Assembly (NCBI GenBank): GCA_050250895.1
Contig: JBFWNU010000004.1
Coordinates: forward strand, 366,934 to 430,933
Direction of reading: 5' to 3'
Origin: Vulcanimicrobiota bacterium
GTDB lineage: Bacteria > Vulcanimicrobiota > Xenobia > Xenobiales > JADMJV01
Length of the DNA stretch: 64,000 nucleotides
Shown here: positions 32,462 to 41,553 of the stretch, in pieces
How positions within the stretch are numbered: position 1 is the first letter of the stretch
Layout of the letters: each line of letters starts with the position of its first letter
The notes under the pieces: generated by a model
Told to the model about the DNA's origin: nothing
The model's input: only the letters and a program-made list of their open reading frames with translations
The model's database searches: none
Position numbers and translations under genes: made by a program

Positions 32462-33223
32462 CTAACGTCCCAGCGCCTGGCGTACCAACTGCTCTCGCTC
32501 GTGGCCGCCAGGGTGTTGCATATCGGCCTCCAGGCCGCCCAGGAACGCCAGTGCCGGAGCCGGATCGCAACCAAGCTGAGCCAACACTCCGGCGGCGAAG
32601 GCGTCGGCCTCCCGTTCGTTCTGGTGGCGACCTTCGCGCAAGACCTTGAAGCTGAGGCTCTCTAGCTGGTCGTTGCCCTGGCAGCCGGCCAGGAAGGCCT
32701 CGAGCCCGGCCACGCCCGCCTTGTCGCGATGCTGGCGATGGCCCTCTTCGTGGGCCAGAGTGAAGAGCAAGATGGTGTCGTCGGCCATGTCGCCGGCCAG
32801 GCTGGCGGTGCCCAGATACATTTCGCGGCTGTCGGACTGGGCGTCGATGAAGCTCGACTCGAGCACCACCGGGGCCGGAAAGCTCGACTGACTGGCCTGG
32901 GCCACCTGGCTCCAGGCCTGCTCGACTCGCGGGTCCTGGCGGTGCGGTAGGCTGGAGTACTGGTCGGCCAGATTATCGGCAAAAGCGGCATCTTCGGCCT
33001 GACTCACCAGGTTCTGGCCGATCTCTTGACTGAGGGCCGCCAGGGCCGGCACTTGGCTGGCTCCGGCAGCGGCCGAAACGGCCAGGACCATCTGTTGGAA
33101 ACGACGCGCCTGGTTACTCGGTTCGAAGCTATCGGCCGGCAAAGCCTCGAGCTGGTCAGCCGGGACGAGGGGACGGGCCCGTTCGCAGAAGGCGCGTTGA
33201 AACTGGAACGTGTCGATTCTCAC
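32462..33223 (-). CDS. M48-like zinc metalloprotease
   Basis: LAHEEGH (HExxH), EREADAFA and a late HP motif. Confidence 0.75.
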   Translation of the reverse strand: MRIDTFQFQRAFCERARPLVPADQLEALPADSFEPSNQARRFQQMVLAVSAAAGASQVPALAALSQEIGQNLVSQAEDAAFADNLADQYSSLPHRQDPRVEQAWSQVAQASQSSFPAPVVLESSFIDAQSDSREMYLGTASLAGDMADDTILLFTLAHEEGHRQHRDKAGVAGLEAFLAGCQGNDQLESLSFKVLREGRHQNEREADAFAAGVLAQLGCDPAPALAFLGGLEADMQHPGGHEREQLVRQALGR

Positions 33224-33603: not shown

Positions 33604-33933
33604 ATGAGCGATATCCCCCCGCCTTACAGTCCCGAGATCGAGGCGCGCATCGCCCAAATGGTAGCCCTCGGCTGGCGGCGTGACGATGTCTACGTGCGAG
33701 CCAATGGCGAGGTGTATCACGACCCGATGAGTGACGCTGTGGCCTATCTCTGCGCCGGCCATCACGCCAGCCTCGATTGCTACATGAACAGCCACCCCCA
33801 CCGCTTTCCGGTGCCCGAGCCCGTCGACGAAGCGAGTATCGAACTCCCTCCCGAGCCGTGGTGGATTCGGCTCAACTGGGCCATCATCGGCTACCTCGCC
33901 CGACTGGGCAGGGCCCAGAGGGAGAGTTCCTAG
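33604..33933 (+). CDS. Hypothetical protein
   Basis: The ATG directly follows the upstream stop, and the ORF fills the gap. Confidence 0.55.
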   Translation: MSDIPPPYSPEIEARIAQMVALGWRRDDVYVRANGEVYHDPMSDAVAYLCAGHHASLDCYMNSHPHRFPVPEPVDEASIELPPEPWWIRLNWAIIGYLARLGRAQRESS

Positions 33934-35150
33934 TCGCGAATGTCGAGTTCGATATCGCCCACGGTAATGACACCATCACCCAAATCGATGGTGGGAAGAG
34001 GGGCGTCGGGCTGGGCGGGGTCGCGCTCGAGAGCTTTCAATAGACCCATGCTGGAGAGGGCGTGTAGTCCGCCTTTGCGCGTAGCCAGGATGACCCGGTC
34101 CCCTTGCAGGGTCAAGCTGGAGGGGGTCTGTTTTTCGTCGGAGGTGTAGTTCCACAGCACCGAGCCGTCCTCGGGGCGCATGGCATAAACCTGACCTTCC
34201 TGGTCGCCCACCGCATAGACGGTGTCGTCAGGGCCAACCTGGACCCCGGAATGGGCTATGGGAAACTGCATCTGCTTGCTCCACAGTTCGTTGCCTTCGG
34301 CGTCGAGGCAAAACAGGGTGCGATCCCAGCTGCCGGCGTAGATGCGGGTGCCATCGTTGGAGAGAACCGGGGTCGAACTCAACGCAAACGAGTCTCGCTT
34401 GGAAAGGGATTCACGCTGCTCGGCGGTCATCTGGTCAAGCCGTTGATGAGCCTCGCCCGAGAACTCCCAGAGCGTATTTCCCTGGGTGTCCATCTTGCGG
34501 ATCTTGCCATTACCGGTGGTGAAGAGCAGGCCATCCTCGGTCGGAGTGACCCGCGTGCCCGCGTGCAATCCGTCGTAAGACGGAAACCCCCGGGACCACA
34601 AAAAGTTGCCGTCTTTGATGGCGGTGATGGAGCCATCGGCCTGATAGATGGTGTCGTCGGCGCCCACCGCCAGACCGCCGTGATGCCCGGTGTTTTGCCG
34701 AGTATAATGGGTCCAGCCCCGCTGACCGTCAAACTTGATGAGATGGACGTTGCCGGGCCAGCCCTCGGAATAGACCACGCCATCCTTAGACACAGCGCCA
34801 ATACGACCGGTAGGCGGGGCCGGCAGGTCTTCTTTACTGATGCTCCACTGGGGCTGGCCGTCTTTGCGGTCCAGGCAAACCAGGGGAGCCTCGCTCGTCG
34901 TAACGATGACGGCCTCGCTGGTAACCAGCGGGGAGGCGGCCATGGCCAGGCCTTTCATCTCTTTTTGCCACTGGACTTCGGCGTTGTCGGGATTCATGGC
35001 GATAAGAGCCCGGTCGGTGGGCACGTAGAGCGTTCCGTCATCGCCCACGCTGGGCGGGGCCACGATATCGCGGTCGAGCTTGACCGACCATTCCTCGACC
35101 GTGCTGCGCTTGGGGTCGAGGACCACAGAGATGGGGTTGGAGCCTATCAT
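33930..35150 (-). CDS. PQQ-like (BamB-type) beta-propeller repeat protein
   Basis: Repeated blades such as DGTLYV, LVCLDRKDGQPQW and LFCLDAEGNELW; no signal peptide. Confidence 0.85.
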   Translation of the reverse strand: MIGSNPISVVLDPKRSTVEEWSVKLDRDIVAPPSVGDDGTLYVPTDRALIAMNPDNAEVQWQKEMKGLAMAASPLVTSEAVIVTTSEAPLVCLDRKDGQPQWSISKEDLPAPPTGRIGAVSKDGVVYSEGWPGNVHLIKFDGQRGWTHYTRQNTGHHGGLAVGADDTIYQADGSITAIKDGNFLWSRGFPSYDGLHAGTRVTPTEDGLLFTTGNGKIRKMDTQGNTLWEFSGEAHQRLDQMTAEQRESLSKRDSFALSSTPVLSNDGTRIYAGSWDRTLFCLDAEGNELWSKQMQFPIAHSGVQVGPDDTVYAVGDQEGQVYAMRPEDGSVLWNYTSDEKQTPSSLTLQGDRVILATRKGGLHALSSMGLLKALERDPAQPDAPLPTIDLGDGVITVGDIELDIRD

Positions 35151-35173: not shown

Positions 35174-35422
35174 TTAACGGGTTCTTAAATAACGGAGAAA
35201 ATCCCACAGGCCAGCGAAACGGTAGTCGCCGTCGATGTAATGCTCGATGACGTAGAAGGCGAAGTAGTAGGCCCGGGCAAAGGCCCAGATAGCCAGCGCC
35301 AGCATCCCGGCTACCATGGGCTCGGGATGAAGCAGCAGCAGATTGAGCGCCGCCATCAACCCCAGCAGTAGAAAAAGCACACCTTTGGCATAGAGCCACT
35401 TCGGATTCTCGAGATCGCCCAT
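35174..35422 (-). CDS. Small membrane protein
   Basis: MGDLENPKWLYAKG...YYFAFYVIEHYID with 2-3 TM helices; the ORF can extend to 35488. Confidence 0.65.
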   Translation of the reverse strand: MGDLENPKWLYAKGVLFLLLGLMAALNLLLLHPEPMVAGMLALAIWAFARAYYFAFYVIEHYIDGDYRFAGLWDFLRYLRTR

Positions 35423-35501
35423 CACCCGATTTATACCCCCAGGTTGCACTTCTCGGAAGTTTTCCACAAGGATTTGAGGATTTTTCAAGGAATCTAAGGG
35501 A

Positions 35502-37271
35502 ATGGATTTATTGGGCTTGGTAGAGCAAGCGGCCGATGGAGACGTGCTGCAGCTCGAGGGTGTCTATTCTTTGGCCGAGCCGCTGGTCTTGACGCGGGCA
35601 GTGAGCCTGGTGGGCCAGGCGGCCACCATCGTGTCCGAGAGTCCTGACGTGGTGGTGCGGCTGGTGGGTCCCGGCCCTTTCAGTTTTCATGACATCCGTT
35701 TCGAATATCGCGGCCAAGAGCCGGCCCGGGTGGTCTGGCTCGAATCGGGTCGAGCCGACTTCGAGCGCTGTCGCTTCAGCGGCGGCCATTGGAATGACGA
35801 GCGTGGCTATGGCTGCGGTCTGCACCTGGGCGGCCAGAGCCAGGCCAGAGTGCGCCAATGCCAGTTCTTTGAAAACGATGTGGGGGTGCTGGTCGACCAC
35901 CAGGCTCGGCCTTTACTCGAGGGTTGCCGGTTCACCGATAATCGTCTCGACGGTTTGCGTTTTCGTGGCTATTCGGGCGGTCGGGCGGTGCAGAACGAAT
36001 GTCGAGGCAACGGCTGGTCGGGTATTTCGGTGGCCGGCGAGGCGACCCCCGAGCTGGTCAGCAACTTCTGCTCCGAGAACGGGAGCAGCGGTATCCTCTA
36101 TCGCGAGCGAGGCAGCGGCATCGGTTCGTCCAACGAGTGTTCGCACAACGCCCACCACGGCATCAGCTTGAGCGAATACTGCCGCCCCTTGCTCAAAGCC
36201 AACCAGTGCGAAGAGAACCAGCTCTGCGGCATCGACCTGGGGGATCAGTCGCGCGGCGTGTTGCAATCGAATCTTTGTTGCGGCAACGGCGTGCACGGCA
36301 TGCAGGTGCGCGATGAGGCCGATCCCGTCCTGGAAGACAACGAGTGCATGGAGAACGCCAGCTCGGGGCTGGCCATTTTCGGAGCCTCGCGAGCCGTGTG
36401 CCGGCGCAACGTGTTGACCCAGAACGCCTGCTACGGCCTGCAAGTGAGCCAGGACGCCTCGCCCGTGCTCGTCGAGAACCACGCCGTGGGTAATCGTCTG
36501 TCGGGGTTCGGCTTCTTTGGCCAGGCGGGCGGCCTGGGGGCCGCCAACGAGTGCAGCGAAAACCACGGCTACGGGGTGCAACTGTCGGGCACCGCAGCCC
36601 CCATCCTGGGCGATCAGCTCTGCACTCAAAACCAGCGCGGGGGCCTCCTGGCAGCCGAAGAGAGCCGTCCCCTCGTGCGGGGCGGCCAGTTCAGCAAGAA
36701 CGAAAAGCACGGCCTGGTGGTCAACGACCGCTCCCGCCCCCTGTTGCACGGAGCCAAAGCCGCCAGCAATGCCGAAGACGGCGTGGTCTTCGTGGGCCGA
36801 GCCGGGGGCGAGGCGCTGGCGGTCGAGGCCAGCGAGAACGGCCGCCACGGAATGTCCATCGGCCCCAAGACCTCACCCCTGCTCGAAGGCTGCAACTGCA
36901 ACCAGAACCAGGCAGCCGATACCAGCAACCAATCGGGCAAGGCCCGCACAGCCTCGCGGGGCGGCGAACACGAACCACTGCCCGAGGGCTTCGAGGTGGC
37001 CATCGAAAGCGGCGAATCGCTGCGTCTGCCGTTCGAACCCAAGGGAGTGGAAAAGTTGATTCTCGAGGCTCTACTAAAGCACGGTCGCTTGAGCGAGGCA
37101 TCCCTTGCCAAGGTGGCCCGCACCCGCCGCATCGGGGGAGCCATGGAGAACTTGCTCGAGCGCCTCAATCAGGCCGGGCTGCGCTATATTCGGCGCGACG
37201 GCGAGGGGCCCGAGGGCAACGTCTACGCGCTCAGCCGCGACACCAACCAATCAGGGAGACAAGCATGCTAG
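35502..37271 (+). CDS. Right-handed parallel beta-helix repeat protein with a C-terminal winged-helix-like domain
   Basis: Many ~23-aa coils of the type NxCxxNxxxG[ILM]; C-terminal LILEALLKHGRLSEASLAK...NVYAL; no signal peptide. Confidence 0.85.
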   Translation: MDLLGLVEQAADGDVLQLEGVYSLAEPLVLTRAVSLVGQAATIVSESPDVVVRLVGPGPFSFHDIRFEYRGQEPARVVWLESGRADFERCRFSGGHWNDERGYGCGLHLGGQSQARVRQCQFFENDVGVLVDHQARPLLEGCRFTDNRLDGLRFRGYSGGRAVQNECRGNGWSGISVAGEATPELVSNFCSENGSSGILYRERGSGIGSSNECSHNAHHGISLSEYCRPLLKANQCEENQLCGIDLGDQSRGVLQSNLCCGNGVHGMQVRDEADPVLEDNECMENASSGLAIFGASRAVCRRNVLTQNACYGLQVSQDASPVLVENHAVGNRLSGFGFFGQAGGLGAANECSENHGYGVQLSGTAAPILGDQLCTQNQRGGLLAAEESRPLVRGGQFSKNEKHGLVVNDRSRPLLHGAKAASNAEDGVVFVGRAGGEALAVEASENGRHGMSIGPKTSPLLEGCNCNQNQAADTSNQSGKARTASRGGEHEPLPEGFEVAIESGESLRLPFEPKGVEKLILEALLKHGRLSEASLAKVARTRRIGGAMENLLERLNQAGLRYIRRDGEGPEGNVYALSRDTNQSGRQAC

Positions 37272-38569
37272 CCAGTTTAAGCCGCGACACGGCCACTTCG
37301 ATCATCAACGCGCTGCGTTCGGGAACCGTCCCTTTTGACGGGCTCGAGCACTATGCGGTGGGCCTCGAGCGCCAGATGGAGGTGCTGCGCGAGCAGCGCG
37401 AGTACGTGGCCGGTGGTCACTCGGCCTATAAGTGCATTCGGGGCGCTTACGGGTCGGGCAAGACCTTTCTCTCGAGCCTGGCCGCGGCCGAAGCTGCCGA
37501 CGCCAAGTTTCTGACCAGTAAAGTGGTCATCTCGGCCGCCGATACGCCGCTCCATAAGCTCAAAGAAGTCTATCGCCGCTTCTGCCAGAACCTTTCTCTG
37601 GCCGACCGCCGAGGGGGCGCCCTGCAGACCCTGGTCGACCGCTGGCTCTATCGCCTCGAGGACCAGGTCATCGAGGTCGATGGAGTGGCTGAGGACGACC
37701 CCGACTTCGCCGAGGTGGTGGCCCGCAAGGTCGACATGAGCCTGGTGCGCATCGGAGAACGGGCGGGCCGCCTGGCCGTCACCCTCAAAGCCTATCACAA
37801 AGCCAAGTACGACAGTCGCTTCTCGGACGCACGGGGCTTGCTCGATTGGGTCTCGGGCGAACCCAAGGTGGGGGCCGACGTCAAGCGCCTGGCCTCGGTG
37901 ACCGGCCAGATCGACAACACCGACGCCCTGGTCTTTCTGCGCGGTTGGCTGGAACTGGCGGAGGCGGCCGGCTACGCCGGGGTGTTGCTGGTGCTCGACG
38001 AAGTCGAGACCATCCTGCGCCTGCGCCGGCCCGAGCGGCTCAAATCGCTCGAAGTGTTGCGCCAGTTGATCGACGCCGTCGAGAATCAAGAACTGCCGGG
38101 GTTGCACCTGCTGATCACCGGCACCCCCGACTTCTTCGAAAGTTCCCAGGGGGTCCCGTCGCTGGTGCCCCTGCACGAGCGCATCCGCCAGACCCACCGC
38201 GACGGCGAGCCCGAGAACTTTCGCCAACCCCAGATCACGTTGCCCACCCTCGACGCCGAGCGTCTGCGCCAGGTGGCCACGCGGGTGCGGGCCATCTATC
38301 CGGCCGAACATGGCGAGCGGTTGAGCAAGCGAGTACCCGACAGCTATGTGTTGCAACTGGTGGACCAGATGACGGCCGGCTTCGGTGGTCGCATCGAGGT
38401 GTTGCCGCGCTTGTTCCTGCGCGAATTCGTGCACATCCTCGACCTGGTCGACCAGCACTCAGACTACGATCCGGCTCAAGCCTATCGCTTTGATGTGGCC
38501 GGACTGAGCGAACTCAGGCCCGAAGAGGAAGAGGCCATTCAAGCGGCCGGGCGCGAGGTTCTCATCTAG
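37265..38569 (+). CDS. brxD: BREX-type ATP-binding protein BrxD (DUF2791 P-loop ATPase)
   Basis: IINALRSGTVP..GL start, GAYGSGKT Walker A, LLVLDEVET Walker B, ITGTPDFF, and PRLFLREFV..LDLVDQ at the end. The ATG at 37265 follows GGGAGA and overlaps the upstream stop. Confidence 0.85.
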   Translation: MLASLSRDTATSIINALRSGTVPFDGLEHYAVGLERQMEVLREQREYVAGGHSAYKCIRGAYGSGKTFLSSLAAAEAADAKFLTSKVVISAADTPLHKLKEVYRRFCQNLSLADRRGGALQTLVDRWLYRLEDQVIEVDGVAEDDPDFAEVVARKVDMSLVRIGERAGRLAVTLKAYHKAKYDSRFSDARGLLDWVSGEPKVGADVKRLASVTGQIDNTDALVFLRGWLELAEAAGYAGVLLVLDEVETILRLRRPERLKSLEVLRQLIDAVENQELPGLHLLITGTPDFFESSQGVPSLVPLHERIRQTHRDGEPENFRQPQITLPTLDAERLRQVATRVRAIYPAEHGERLSKRVPDSYVLQLVDQMTAGFGGRIEVLPRLFLREFVHILDLVDQHSDYDPAQAYRFDVAGLSELRPEEEEAIQAAGREVLI

Positions 38570-38581
38570 TCCGCGCTGCAG

Positions 38582-40531
38582 TTAGAACTGCTGCCAGAGC
38601 AGCACGCGGCTCTTCTCGGCCGGGTCGAAGACCTGATTGAGGTCGAGATTGATCAAGTAGAACTCTTTGCCGTTCTTGATGGTGGGCTTGAGCAGCGAGT
38701 CGAGATAGGCTTCGACCTTCATGTCATCGACCTTGACGGCCGGCTGAAAAGTGTGAGTCGAACTCGAAGAGGTCTTGGTGGTCTTGGACGAGAGCCCGAA
38801 CCAGGAACTCTCCTTCTTCTTGTATTCGGTGGTTACCGTGTATTCCACCGGCGCGCCGGCCGAGGCCTGGGCCACTGCGGCCCAGTTGGCAACTTCGGCC
38901 AGCACCGTCTCGCGAGAAACGTTATTGCCGCGATAATAGTTGACATAGACCGTCTTGTCTTCAATAGTGAAGGGGTACTTGTCGAGCTGGAAATTGGCCG
39001 CATCTTCAACTGGGATGGCCGAGGCATCGGTATACATGTTGCCTCGCGAGAAAGCGCCTTGAATAGCCACCGAGAAGCGCTCTTCACCGGTCTCGGTGGC
39101 GGGCATTCGATGGCCTGACACCGCCAGCCCGGCCACCACCGAGTCGGCCAGCTTGGCCTTGTCGGCGGCGCTGATGATGTTGGTGGTGGTGGTGTCTTTA
39201 TCGCCCCAGCCGAGGAACCGGTCGTCGTCTTCATCCTCTTTGCTGGTGGTATCGGGCAGCGTGCTCTTGGTGACATCGGGCACGCCGACCGCAAAACTCA
39301 CCGAGATGGGCGTCTTGACCAGGGTGACGTTGTCGAGGCGCAACTTTCCTTTCCCTTTGGGGCCGTTGGCCACGGCCGCTCCCACCACCGTGATGTCCTT
39401 GGCCCACAGGTCGCCTTCGGAATAGACCAGTCCGTTAAAGAAGTTGCCACTCTTGCTCAGGCCGTGAAGGGTGATATCGCCTTTGGAGACCAGCGCCACC
39501 ACATCGGTGGCCGAAATCTCGGCGCCCTCTTTGATCGACACTTCACCGAGCGAGAAAATCGCGCCGTTGCCGTAGACCTTGCCGGTCACGTCGACATCGC
39601 CCCGCACATACAGCAGGCCACCGTTGAGGTGAATGTTGCCATTGACCCTGAGGTCGCCCAGGGCCTCGGTGAAGAAGTCGACCTCTAAATTGGTAAGGGT
39701 CGGCGACCCATCGAGGATCTGATCGTTGCCTTTGATCTCGTCAAGCTTGGCAAAGATGTTGTCCACATCCAGGTCGGGCATGGTCTGCTCACCCGAGTGC
39801 TCGCGCACCTCGCCGGCCACTTTGACCGAGGTATCGAGGTCGATGCTTCCTACTGCCATGACGTCGCCCATCACGGTCGAGGTTGGCCCGATAGAAACGG
39901 CCTTGTCCCCGGCAAAGTTACTGGCCACATGGGCCATATCCAAATCCGCCGGGTCGAGGGTGGTGGCTTTGCCGGTGTCGGCAAAAGCCTGGGTAGAAGC
40001 CACTCCTGCAACCAGCAGCCCGCCCGACGAGGTCAGGGGTCCGGTCGAAGCCAGAGCGTTGGGATAAGGAGGGATGTAGTAAATGGCTTCCATCTGGTAG
40101 CGGGCGTTCTTGCACTTGCCCACGGCCACCAGGTGCACGGCGCTGTCGGGAATCTGCCGGCCGTTGGCCCCCTCGACCGAGGTCGGCTCTTCGAAATTAT
40201 TGGTCGAGAAGGGCAACTTCAGATCGGAGGCCTGCTTCTTGCTGAAGGTCAGCCAACCATCGGCCTCGTCAGGAGCGAAGCTGGATGGGATGTGAATGGT
40301 CTGGTCATCAGCCCGGGCCTTGCCGAACGTCTGGTCCATCCAGATGCGTCCCAGCGCCGTGGCCACCGCCGACTCGGCCAGATTGCGGGCTTCGCGCTGG
40401 TCCACCACCGTGTTGCTGAAATTGAGGTGGAAGAAGGAAACGGCCACCACGGTAAACAGCGCCAGGGTAATGATGGTAACCAGCAGTAGAACAGAACCGA
40501 TTGTGAGACCGCGTGCTCCCCTGCGAACCAT
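38582..40531 (-). CDS. PilX-like minor pilin/pseudopilin with a large C-terminal domain
   Basis: Basic leader and G|L prepilin-like site (RRGARG|LTIGSVLLL), a hydrophobic helix and ARNLAES, followed by Gly-rich beta-solenoid-like repeats. Confidence 0.65.
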   Translation of the reverse strand: MVRRGARGLTIGSVLLLVTIITLALFTVVAVSFFHLNFSNTVVDQREARNLAESAVATALGRIWMDQTFGKARADDQTIHIPSSFAPDEADGWLTFSKKQASDLKLPFSTNNFEEPTSVEGANGRQIPDSAVHLVAVGKCKNARYQMEAIYYIPPYPNALASTGPLTSSGGLLVAGVASTQAFADTGKATTLDPADLDMAHVASNFAGDKAVSIGPTSTVMGDVMAVGSIDLDTSVKVAGEVREHSGEQTMPDLDVDNIFAKLDEIKGNDQILDGSPTLTNLEVDFFTEALGDLRVNGNIHLNGGLLYVRGDVDVTGKVYGNGAIFSLGEVSIKEGAEISATDVVALVSKGDITLHGLSKSGNFFNGLVYSEGDLWAKDITVVGAAVANGPKGKGKLRLDNVTLVKTPISVSFAVGVPDVTKSTLPDTTSKEDEDDDRFLGWGDKDTTTTNIISAADKAKLADSVVAGLAVSGHRMPATETGEERFSVAIQGAFSRGNMYTDASAIPVEDAANFQLDKYPFTIEDKTVYVNYYRGNNVSRETVLAEVANWAAVAQASAGAPVEYTVTTEYKKKESSWFGLSSKTTKTSSSSTHTFQPAVKVDDMKVEAYLDSLLKPTIKNGKEFYLINLDLNQVFDPAEKSRVLLWQQF

Positions 40532-40677: not shown

Positions 40678-41553
40678 ATGAATGCGGTCAGAACCCATCG
40701 CCCGACCGCCGGGCCCACTCTCCCGGCCGCGCGCCCGCGCCCGGCCGGGCCTGCGCTCAGCGGCACCGCTGACACAGGGCTCAAGGCGCAGCGCCTCTCT
40801 GAGCTGCGCGACCAGAAACCGACCACCCCGGCGGGCCAGAACCCCACTCTCGCCAGCCAGGCCGAAAGGGCTAGGGCAGGCCTGGGCCAAGCCTTCGAGC
40901 TAAAGAAGCCGGTCACGCTCAAGAATGGAGTCACCGTGGTCAAAAGCGCCGACCTCAGCGACGGCTCGGGCCTATATGACCTGAATGTGGGCGGCCACAA
41001 AGTGGGGGTCCGTTTCGACCAGGGAATCGACGCAGGCACAAAGCTGCCGCAATTGGCCGACTACCTCGAGCAGACACCCGAACACTTGCGCAAAGAGCTT
41101 GGTTTTATCAACTTTCAGAACGGGGCCAATCCCAAGGACGCTGAAATCGCCAAGAAGTTTGGAGTCGAAGAGTTTCAGACCTGGGCTACCGCCGATGACC
41201 ACGCCATCAACGTCTACCACGGCGGAAAATTCTTCGGTCAACGCGAGTTCGACCACGAGCTGGGCCATCTGGTGGGCGCCCGTCGCAGCGGCCACGACGA
41301 ACTGGTCGACTGGGTCAATCTGCGCCACGACCCCCACAACACACCGGTTGGTTGGGGGGCCCGCAAAGCCTACGACCATAAAGAGGTTTCTGACTACGGA
41401 AAGCTGTCGCTCGGCGAGGACTTCGCCGAGGGCTATGCCGACTACATGCAGGCTCGCCGTCAGGGCCCCGAAGCCTGGCAGGCGTTCGGACAGAAGTTTC
41501 CCAGCCGGACGGCCCTGCTCGAGCGCATCGTGACCAACGGAGACACCCGCTGA
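40678..41553 (+). CDS. Zincin-type metalloprotease-like protein
   Basis: DHELGH (HExxH) and downstream SDYG...EDFAE, as in lethal-factor/Pro-Pro endopeptidase-like domains; Pro/Ala-rich N-terminus. Confidence 0.7.
   Translation: MNAVRTHRPTAGPTLPAARPRPAGPALSGTADTGLKAQRLSELRDQKPTTPAGQNPTLASQAERARAGLGQAFELKKPVTLKNGVTVVKSADLSDGSGLYDLNVGGHKVGVRFDQGIDAGTKLPQLADYLEQTPEHLRKELGFINFQNGANPKDAEIAKKFGVEEFQTWATADDHAINVYHGGKFFGQREFDHELGHLVGARRSGHDELVDWVNLRHDPHNTPVGWGARKAYDHKEVSDYGKLSLGEDFAEGYADYMQARRQGPEAWQAFGQKFPSRTALLERIVTNGDTR

Follow-up and report, generated by a model that had tools for sequence, protein, structure and literature searches.

We describe here two adjacent plus-strand genes in a 64,000-nucleotide stretch of a Vulcanimicrobiota genome (hereafter the window), namely gene A, which encodes a beta-helix protein, and gene B, which encodes an ATPase of the BrxD family otherwise seen in type-2 bacteriophage exclusion (BREX) systems. 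The two genes overlap by 7 bases (ATGCTAG; 37265-37271), and AGGGAGA, a Shine-Dalgarno-like run, is found six bases before the ATG of gene B (Table 1). The pair is bounded on both sides by minus-strand genes: the nearest upstream open reading frames (ORFs) are 35174-35488 and 33930-35150, and the nearest downstream ORF (38582-40531) is convergent and unrelated. A scan for transcription signals yielded no promoter-like site and 3 terminator-like ones, a yield not above that of shuffled sequences. Among public sequencing runs, no RNA run with this sequence was listed, and three DNA runs contained 5-6% of the sequence words. A first-pass annotation made from the sequence alone had read this locus as a BrxD ATPase with intact Walker A and B motifs, coupled to a beta-helix gene by a 7-bp overlap and flanked by opposite-strand genes; all of these points were recovered in the present analysis.

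Table 1. Features of the gene A/gene B locus, in positions of the window.
Feature	Position	Strand	Basis
Gene A, 589 aa, cytoplasmic beta-helix protein carrying a winged-helix adaptor at its C-terminus	35502..37271	+	ORF, translation, Pfam, AlphaFold2 model
Right-handed parallel beta-helix, ~20 coils, residues 14-476	35541..36929	+	DSSP of model, conserved ladder columns
C-terminal adaptor (tag): small beta segment and three-stranded winged helix, residues 482-577	36945..37232	+	Alignment, model
Translational-coupling junction	37253..37271	+	AGGGAGA 37253-37259, BrxD ATG 37265, gene A TAG 37269-37271
Gene B, BrxD-family ORC/Cdc6-like AAA+ ATPase, 434 aa	37265..38569	+	Family scans, AlphaFold2 model
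Walker A, G60-T67	37442..37465	+	Sequence; invariant in 21 orthologues
Insert of helices following strand 2 (residues 113-190), with the predicted adaptor-docking surface	37601..37834	+	Model
Walker B, residues 241-246 (D245-E246)	37985..38002	+	Sequence; D245 and E246 invariant

The product of gene B matched the Pfam family BrxC_BrxD (PF10923) with an E-value of 8.5e-119 and 397.6 bits (cut-off 22.2) over profile positions 3-412 of 414, the PADLOC model of BrxD with 1.5e-140, and the NCBIfam equivalog BREX_BrxD (NF033438) with 459.1 bits against a cut-off of 350. The PADLOC model of SngB, the ATPase of Shango, matched the same protein at 5.8e-44. Walker A (GAYGSGKT) and the Walker B residues D245-E246 are intact and invariant across 21 orthologues. 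Judged from its sequence, gene B is a member of the BrxD family with intact ATPase motifs. The AlphaFold2 (AF2) model, with a predicted local distance difference test (pLDDT) score of 86.5, comprises an AAA+ core and seven helices between the strand at 82-88 and the Walker B strand at 239-245, the helices of this insert including H120-137, H148-166, H168-182 and H186-196. The model found only weak structural matches in Foldseek, namely RdrA, HslU, BrxC, TnsC and ORC/Cdc6 (E from 1.7e-4 to 2e-3, template modelling (TM) scores of 0.3-0.4), with BrxC at 6.2e-4. In its passages on BrxD, a 2026 survey (PMC12839542) terms the role of this protein in type-2 BREX 'uncharacterized', describes BrxD and the helicase BrxHI as a tightly linked dyad, and suggests, without experiment, that BrxD is possibly a helicase loader.

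The product of gene A matched the Pfam families Beta_helix (PF13229; 8.5e-45 and 152.6 bits in 4 stretches) and NosD (8.2e-23) as well as the TIGR03804 repeat, and the Pfam scan found no family match in its last ~110 residues. Repeated three-strand coils, an Asn ladder and the profile match identify the protein as a right-handed parallel beta-helix. In the AF2 model built from 23 sequences (mean pLDDT 93.1; predicted TM score 0.86), the helix is followed by a short beta segment (482-509) and a winged helix (515-577). The invariant beta-helix columns among the 23 homologues are nearly all Asn or Gly ladder positions with a spacing of 23 residues. Eight of the 20 cysteines occur in N-x-C motifs, mostly in the same 23-residue register, and thus look structural. 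The sequence shows no hydrophobic signal at its N-terminus. When the whole model was searched with Foldseek, generic beta-helices only were found (E down to 8e-9, TM of 0.51 or less, identity 8-15%), among them a phage tail protein, AlgG, pertactin, tailspikes and alginate lyases. A run of polar residues on successive coils (H219, C242, D245, H265 and Q268; window 36156-36305) is conserved in most of the 23 homologues and may represent a ligand or metal site, or merely a part of a 46-residue double repeat. We rejected the beta-helix as a DNA mimic, as its acidity is only mild (net charge of -16 over 480 residues, isoelectric point 5.3). No TerB family was found in gene A by Pfam, and it matched 0 PADLOC families.

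The C-terminal ~95 residues of gene A form a domain with conserved RRxGG and GxGPEG motifs, which we term the tag. Its modeled elements are H515-527, E529-531, H532-539, H544-557, E563-569 and E572-577, giving the topology H-b-H-H-b-b. The same tag ends not only the beta-helix protein but also a PglZ-type protein that fills the partner slot in relatives and a 450-aa protein of a paralogous operon (see below for the details). In an exhaustive profile search, the tag was detected in only 119 of 1,835,955,588 cluster representatives at E<=1e-3, and in 60 of the 60 representatives with E<=1e-10 the match ended at most 23 residues from the C-terminus. The N-terminal parts of the tag-bearing matches of at least 300 aa were grouped by BLAST clustering into 28 proteins of ~600 aa with tetratricopeptide repeats (TPR), 19 of 830-1030 aa with PglZ, 11 of ~450 aa with no family, 7 beta-helix proteins and 13 singletons. 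These class names derive from Pfam on a sample of 10 proteins (TPR in 2 of the 28, the PglZ domain in 3 of the 19, Beta_helix in 1 of the 7, no match in 2 of the 11), the unsampled members being named by BLAST clustering alone. The singletons include a STAND-like NTPase (P0051, 610 aa) and a protein combining an Upf1-like helicase, a REase_MTES_1575 nuclease and DUF3320 (P0101, 972 aa). Across the phylum, 25 of the 301 genomes contained the tag, with 14/15 in family f1, 5/5 in f2, 3/19 in f3, 1/1 in f5 and a weak match in 1/207 of the largest family.

The tag phylogeny mirrors that of BrxD regardless of the N-terminal class, as is expected for co-diverging partners, although shared ancestry alone could also produce mirrored trees. 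A profile search of the tag against PDB sequences returned only weak matches to winged helix-turn-helix (wHTH) domains of the Lrp/AsnC type (best E 0.2) and no solved relative. A word-indexed homologue search with the tag region, a method too insensitive for this domain, recovered one close relative (P0004). The tag was rejected as a TerB-C domain, as Pfam, run leniently on the isolated tag, returned HTH_53 at E 0.036 and no TerB_C. One metagenome contig (L182:6001-9109) carries a gene for a 607-aa TPR-tag protein followed 2 bases later by a BrxD gene, the product of which is 37% identical to gene B and matches the PADLOC BrxD model at 1.3e-123. No BrxHI gene was found within 4.7 kb of these genes. 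This is a second, independent helicase-less pair of a repeat protein and BrxD, though a single case.

The complex of BrxD and the tag was predicted with an interface score (ipSAE) of 0.76 in 3 of 3 runs, and the best of 3 controls scored 0.00. In the calibration, 58 of 80 solved complexes and 2 of 110 mismatched pairs attained the 0.76 mark. At least 92% of the contacts were shared between the runs, and the pLDDT of the partner was 80-81. In the predicted interface, tag residues 43-47, 52-67 and 79-84 face BrxD residues 113-132, 143 and 181-190. The tag side consists of RRxGG-helix 3 and the GPEG motif, which are the most conserved motifs of the tag, and the BrxD side lies in the helical insert and includes the conserved D125, R126, W127, L128 and E132. 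The tag is predicted by this model to dock on the helical insert of BrxD.

We compared the tag with the C-terminal ends of canonical type-2 PglZ, for which we took the last 105 residues of 19 PglZ proteins encoded directly upstream of BrxD (3 of the 22 candidates were dropped, as their ends looked out of frame). The alignment of the tag matched that of the PglZ C-termini in hhalign with a probability of 93% and an E of 3.5e-7 over 52 columns, which cover the helix-turn-helix core and the RxxG motif. This profile comparison makes the tag a remote homologue of the domain that closes canonical type-2 PglZ. According to the PglZ passage of the survey cited above (PMC12839542), type-2 PglZ ends in a three-stranded wHTH, and the gene A model displays the same three-stranded topology; the PglZ and BrxD passages of that source do not link this wHTH to BrxD. 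In the PglZ-type partners of Eremiobacterota and in the 450-aa class, the tag is placed after a segment matching the C-terminal region of PglZ, and the tag thus looks like a diverged second copy of that segment.

We also surveyed 62 loci recovered with the BrxD alignment from species-representative genomes, some of which overlap the related genomes already counted. The tag was carried by 22 of the 62 loci. Of the remaining 40, 25 had a PglZ of the type-2 kind preceding BrxD, mostly followed by BrxHI, and the tag-free loci were of Actinomycetota, Myxococcota, Acidobacteriota, Chromatiales and other groups. For instance, a Streptomyces locus (L109) has the order BrxC-PglZ-BrxD-BrxHI, and its PglZ matches the model PDLC02565 up to position 909 of 910. 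Separately, a relative possesses a complete BREX-like locus comprising PglZ (model PDLC02548), BrxC (PDLC02486), BrxD and BrxHI, followed by a gene for a 953-aa protein with a Cas4-like nuclease end (L071:9095-11956; 4.6e-8), and similar genes occur in the loci of other relatives. The tag profile does not match the PglZ of these BREX-like loci.

A BrxD match was found in 40 of the 41 related genomes searched, and we retrieved the flanks of these matches, mapped the reference proteins on them and combined the results with the phylum-wide tag search. The beta-helix partner was present in 19 of the 21 genomes of the families f1 and f2, comprising 2/2 in the genus of the window (g1), 7/8 in its sister genus g3 (the partner was not found in genome G015), 6/6 in g2 and 4/5 in g4. 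In both g1 and g3, the gene order was mutS2 (divergent), beta-helix and BrxD, with the divergent mutS2 neighbour in 7 g1/g3 loci and also in the locus L133. In the window, mutS2 is separated from gene A by three other ORFs; as mutS2 abuts gene A in the sister genus, the intervening ORFs look like later insertions. The ORFs 32462-33223 (minus strand), 35174-35488 (minus strand) and 40678-41553 (plus strand) near the gene pair matched no Pfam family. No BrxHI gene was found downstream of the pair in the window, nor in 5/5 g3 loci whose downstream flank extends 5 kb or more, nor in the other g1 genome over the 2.5 kb available there; two further g3 contigs end too early to judge. These helicase-less genera have no conserved third gene downstream of the pair, and the conserved GRxxC tail of their gene A fits a conserved overlap.

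In g4, the beta-helix, BrxD and BrxHI genes form one tight operon in 4 genomes, and the fifth genome, which is 64% complete, has a PglZ-type partner instead. The g4 genomes also encode a tag-bearing protein of ~501 aa with no Pfam family (L179:6025-7530; counterparts in L180 and L181), which may act in trans. All 6 genomes of g2 have BrxD-BrxHI. Three of them carry the beta-helix gene immediately upstream, two carry it just past the helicase on the opposite strand, and in the remaining one it is 15 kb distant. The window proteins and their g3 orthologues share ~28% identity in the beta-helix, 55-65% in the tag and 66-72% in BrxD. The records with a BrxD 64-79% identical to gene B and the same synteny bear conflicting submitter labels (Vulcanimicrobiota, Xenobia, 'uncultured Burkholderiales' and 'Selenomonadaceae'), some of which are probably wrong.

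In the FastTree phylogeny of 43 BrxD sequences, all of the beta-helix-linked BrxDs grouped together. Within this clade, the helicase-less BrxDs of g1 and g3 were sister to the helicase-linked ones of g2 and g4, and the next branch out comprised the PglZ-linked BrxDs of neighbouring genera. The branch lengths of the helicase-less group were not inflated, and the 7 helicase-less BrxDs kept 77 of the 80 columns whose conservation among 33 helicase-linked BrxDs is 90% or higher. BrxD position 329 (window 38249-38251) is F in 33/33 of the helicase-linked and L in 7/7 of the helicase-less sequences, and position 277 (window 38093-38095) is F or Y in 30/33 of the former and L in 7/7 of the latter. 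The simplest reading of these data is that a PglZ-type partner was swapped for the beta-helix protein and that the helicase was later lost once, with the pair remaining under purifying selection.

The assembly (9.5 Mb, 99.64% complete) holds the window inside a 764-kb contig, designated C4. Neither the PglZ domain (PF08665) nor the type-2 BrxC model (PDLC02488) had any match genome-wide (0 each), and the match of the type-2 PglZ model PDLC02565 was limited to a 109-residue segment, similar to the C-terminal domain, of a protein encoded downstream of a helicase gene. The latter genes belong to a paralogous operon (L007:7164-11979, corresponding to C4:437163-441978), which is located 33 kb downstream of the pair and ~6 kb past the window end, and whose products are a second BrxD (60% identity with the gene B product), a BrxHI helicase and the 450-aa protein. 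The helicase (C4:438518-440626) is the only BrxHI of the genome and matches the PADLOC models of BrxHI at 2.3e-213 and of SngC, the Shango helicase, at 1.4e-135. In the 450-aa protein, residues 245-353 align with the C-terminal end of the type-2 PglZ model, and the tag occupies the final ~95 residues; the tag-bearing gene of this operon follows the helicase and does not precede BrxD. In total, the genome encodes two proteins with the tag, two closely related BrxDs and a single BrxHI. Besides the two BrxDs, PF10923 matched a distant tandem pair and two weak candidates. A BrxHI-type helicase or a fragment of it was also found elsewhere in the genome in 5/5 of the other genomes with a helicase-less pair that were tested.

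The tandem pair mentioned above comprises distant BrxD/SngB-like ATPases on another contig (C5; L008:7029-16184; PF10923 at 2.3e-39 and 5.5e-29). A 302-aa protein is encoded ahead of them and a 1671-aa protein behind them, and no family matched either. Tandem arrays of this kind with 3-4 copies recur in small-genome relatives. The C5 pair belongs to a different system.

These results refine the picture given by the first-pass annotation. Its statement that no helicase occurs nearby holds within the window but not beyond it, given the BrxHI that accompanies the BrxD paralogue 33 kb downstream. Likewise, BrxD is only partly an orphan, given the paralogous operon of BrxD, BrxHI and an adaptor. 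The proposal that the beta-helix protein has taken the slot of the upstream partner of BrxD is supported: the protein sits in that slot, its tag is homologous to the PglZ C-terminal domain, and the tag is predicted to dock on BrxD. On the other hand, the idea of a primary two-gene invention gives way to a derivation from the three-gene beta-helix/BrxD/BrxHI operon kept in the sister genera, with a single loss of the helicase. Of the two circumstances named as damaging to the annotation, the pair is neither unique to this genome nor decaying, as the beta-helix partner recurs in 19 of the 21 f1 and f2 genomes and BrxD keeps 77 of its 80 conserved columns; a BREX locus split by rearrangement or misassembly was rejected, as this nearly complete genome lacks the PglZ domain and BrxC and the locus lies inside the 764-kb contig.

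We propose that the locus derives, in a lineage-specific manner, from the PglZ-BrxD-BrxHI sub-module of type-2 BREX, with a docked beta-helix front end that likely shares a distant BrxHI, and we hold this to be probable, if only just. This sub-module follows the gene grammar of Shango, with a partner, an ATPase and a helicase. In an ancestor of these Xenobia-type Eremiobacterota, the PglZ upstream of BrxD would have been replaced by a cytoplasmic beta-helix protein, with the C-terminal winged-helix tag kept. Docking of the tag onto the helical insert of BrxD would tether an exchangeable repeat module to an ATP-driven switch, and the beta-helix is probably a target-binding sensor or a scaffold. 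In the sister genera with the three-gene operon, BrxD would load or activate its downstream BrxHI, whereas in g1 and g3 the helicase gene would have been lost from the operon and the translationally coupled pair kept under purifying selection. The pair would then most likely be an extra sensor arm using the single BrxHI of the genome, 33 kb away. By analogy with its relatives BREX-2 and Shango, its likely role would be the restriction of phage or other mobile DNA.

Several points weigh against this proposal. It is computational throughout, and no member of the group has been characterized experimentally. The docking is a model score and not a measurement, and both partners of the complex were supplied as our own alignments, which the calibration of the score did not use. 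The homology between the tag and the PglZ C-terminus comes from a single profile-profile comparison of 52 columns, and the tag profile misses the canonical PglZ C-terminus in a direct search with hidden Markov models. The Eremiobacterota PglZ proteins carry both the tag and the original C-terminal domain, and either of the two could be the one that contacts BrxD in BREX-2. The BrxD tree was rooted arbitrarily on the most distant sequence, is given with no support values and leaves out several loci. The substitutions F329L and F277L could mark a lost contact with BrxHI, which would argue against the use of the helicase in trans, and the presence of a helicase elsewhere in the genome hardly discriminates between the readings, as BrxD-BrxHI dyads are nearly universal in these families. 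Neither conservation nor Foldseek pointed to a recognizable ligand or active site in the beta-helix. The adjacency of tag and BrxD is not universal, since no BrxD or BrxHI was found within ~6 kb of the gene for the ~501-aa tagged protein of g4. Finally, the near-universal, syntenic and vertical distribution beside mutS2 is unlike that of a typical patchy defence island.

A broader version of the proposal, which we regard as possible rather than probable, is that the ~95-residue tag is a portable plug by which interchangeable front ends attach to the helical insert of BrxD, with BrxD as the hub of a 'split NLR-like' immune machine (NLR, nucleotide-binding leucine-rich repeat). The front ends seen with the tag are the PglZ enzyme, the beta-helix, TPR, the STAND-like NTPase and the helicase-nuclease. 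If this is true, the docking tag would be the missing physical link from PglZ to the BrxD-BrxHI dyad in type-2 BREX, the helicase-less pairs would be natural minimal versions, and several tagged sensors, in cis or in trans, would share one helicase.

The strongest competitor of the derived sub-module with a shared helicase is a self-sufficient two-component system, in which the beta-helix senses a target and switches the BrxD ATPase, and BrxD itself is the output, for instance by oligomerizing on or clamping DNA, or by consuming ATP, with no helicase involved. The stability of the helicase-less arrangement across two genera, the retention of nearly all conserved BrxD columns, the independent TPR pair, and the lack of a conserved third gene downstream would suit such a system, as would the Leu at positions 329 and 277 in all 7 helicase-less BrxDs, which is expected after the loss of a helicase contact. 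We nonetheless consider it unlikely, because BrxD has no DNA-binding or effector domain of its own (our model and the BrxD passages of PMC12839542), because it adjoins BrxHI in 33 of the 43 tree loci and in most of the wider survey, and because every helicase-less genome tested retains a BrxHI-type helicase elsewhere.

Less likely still is a housekeeping module for nucleic acids that descended from a defence ancestor and became tied to the MutS2/Smr gene, with a role in repair, recombination control or the rescue of stalled complexes. The conserved divergent position beside mutS2 in g1 and g3 and the core-like distribution in f1 and f2 are in line with this possibility, and no other defence genes were recognized among the immediate neighbours scanned. 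Nevertheless, the operon of g2 and g4 is not beside mutS2 within ~7 kb, and the three ORFs mentioned above intervene in the window itself. In addition, the beta-helix diverges far faster between g1 and g3 than BrxD or the tag, which is more typical of a conflict-facing module, and all of the characterized relatives (BREX-2 and Shango) are defence systems.

It is highly improbable that the beta-helix is a carbohydrate-active or NosD/AlgG-like enzyme, unrelated to nucleic acids, with BrxD as its chaperone or regulator. This option draws on the Pfam NosD match, on weak AlgG/NosD matches in NCBIfam, on AlgG and the alginate lyases among the Foldseek matches, and on the conserved polar run described above; however, the NCBIfam scores are far below the cut-offs (27.7 bits against 300 and 26.6 against 700), no signal peptide is visible, solved beta-helices share 8-15% identity with the protein, nearly every invariant column belongs to the ladder, and TPR and PglZ proteins carry the same tag in the same slot. 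By these scores and with no visible signal peptide, gene A falls outside the NosD and AlgG enzymes. A decaying remnant of a three-gene system heading for loss, to which the disappearance of the helicase gene from the operon might point, is largely refuted and retains almost no probability, as both frames are open in every orthologue examined, the Walker motifs do not vary, BrxDs of different genera are 66-80% identical, the coupled 7-bp overlap persists and the branch lengths are not inflated.

The locus and its relatives bear on the role of BrxD and BrxHI in type-2 BREX and on their link to the PglZ core, as they offer a concrete predicted contact between the tag and the helical insert, with named residues. 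The natural series of swapped front ends (PglZ, beta-helix, TPR and unknown), with and without a helicase, amounts to a ready-made dissection of the machine. If the idea of a portable tag is true, searches with the tag could also uncover new sensors or effectors coupled to BrxD.

Among known systems, the Avs-type STAND/NLR-like NTPases are, as we take it, similar in coupling a repeat module (here beta-helix or TPR) to an ATPase related to ORC/Cdc6/STAND; they presumably differ in that the repeats at the present locus reside on a separate, tag-docked polypeptide and no fused effector is present.

In the type-1 BREX core, the ATPase BrxC forms a complex with BrxB-PglZ, as described in the passages of PMC13326643 on this complex (PDB 9zll). 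A PF10923 AAA+ ATPase is thus physically coupled to PglZ there as well, but the contact in that structure is made via BrxB and the N-terminal part of PglZ, in contrast to the C-terminal winged helix predicted here to bind the helical insert directly.

Shango consists of a TerB protein, an ATPase and a helicase and protects against phages, according to the relevant passages of its description (bioRxiv 10.1101/2022.11.11.516204). The order of SngA, SngB and SngC, that is, a variable first protein, a DUF2791-type ATPase and an Lhr/Ski2-like helicase, resembles that of the present group, and both gene B and the paralogous helicase have matches to SngB (5.8e-44) and SngC (1.4e-135), respectively. 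On the other hand, gene A has no TerB domain and there is no helicase at the locus, while the ATPase and the helicase are much closer to BrxD and BrxHI (1.5e-140 and 2.3e-213) than to their Shango counterparts. With no TerB and with best matches other than SngB and SngC, the locus falls outside Shango.

The PglZ-BrxD-BrxHI sub-module of type-2 BREX is similar to the present group in three respects: the family of the ATPase (PADLOC BrxD at 1.5e-140 here and 5.3e-210 in Streptomyces), the order of a partner, BrxD and then BrxHI (the last in the sister genera), and a partner with a terminal three-stranded winged helix that shares homology with the PglZ C-terminal domain. The differences are that there is no PglZ domain here and no BrxC/PglY in the genome, the partner being a beta-helix repeat protein, that this operon has no helicase, and that the distribution is vertical and core-like in two families. 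The locus does not qualify as type-2 BREX, as PglZ, BrxC and an adjacent BrxHI are all absent; the search covered these components and not PglX or PglW. In the literature we found no module of a beta-helix protein and BrxD and no PglZ C-terminal domain docking on BrxD, although the supplement of PMC12839542, which was outside the search, may list such neighbourhoods. Altogether, the locus works most like the PglZ-BrxD-BrxHI sub-module with its front end swapped and its helicase detached. We regard it as a new form of the BREX-2/Shango-type ATPase-helicase module, and by its kinship to these systems its function would be in defence.

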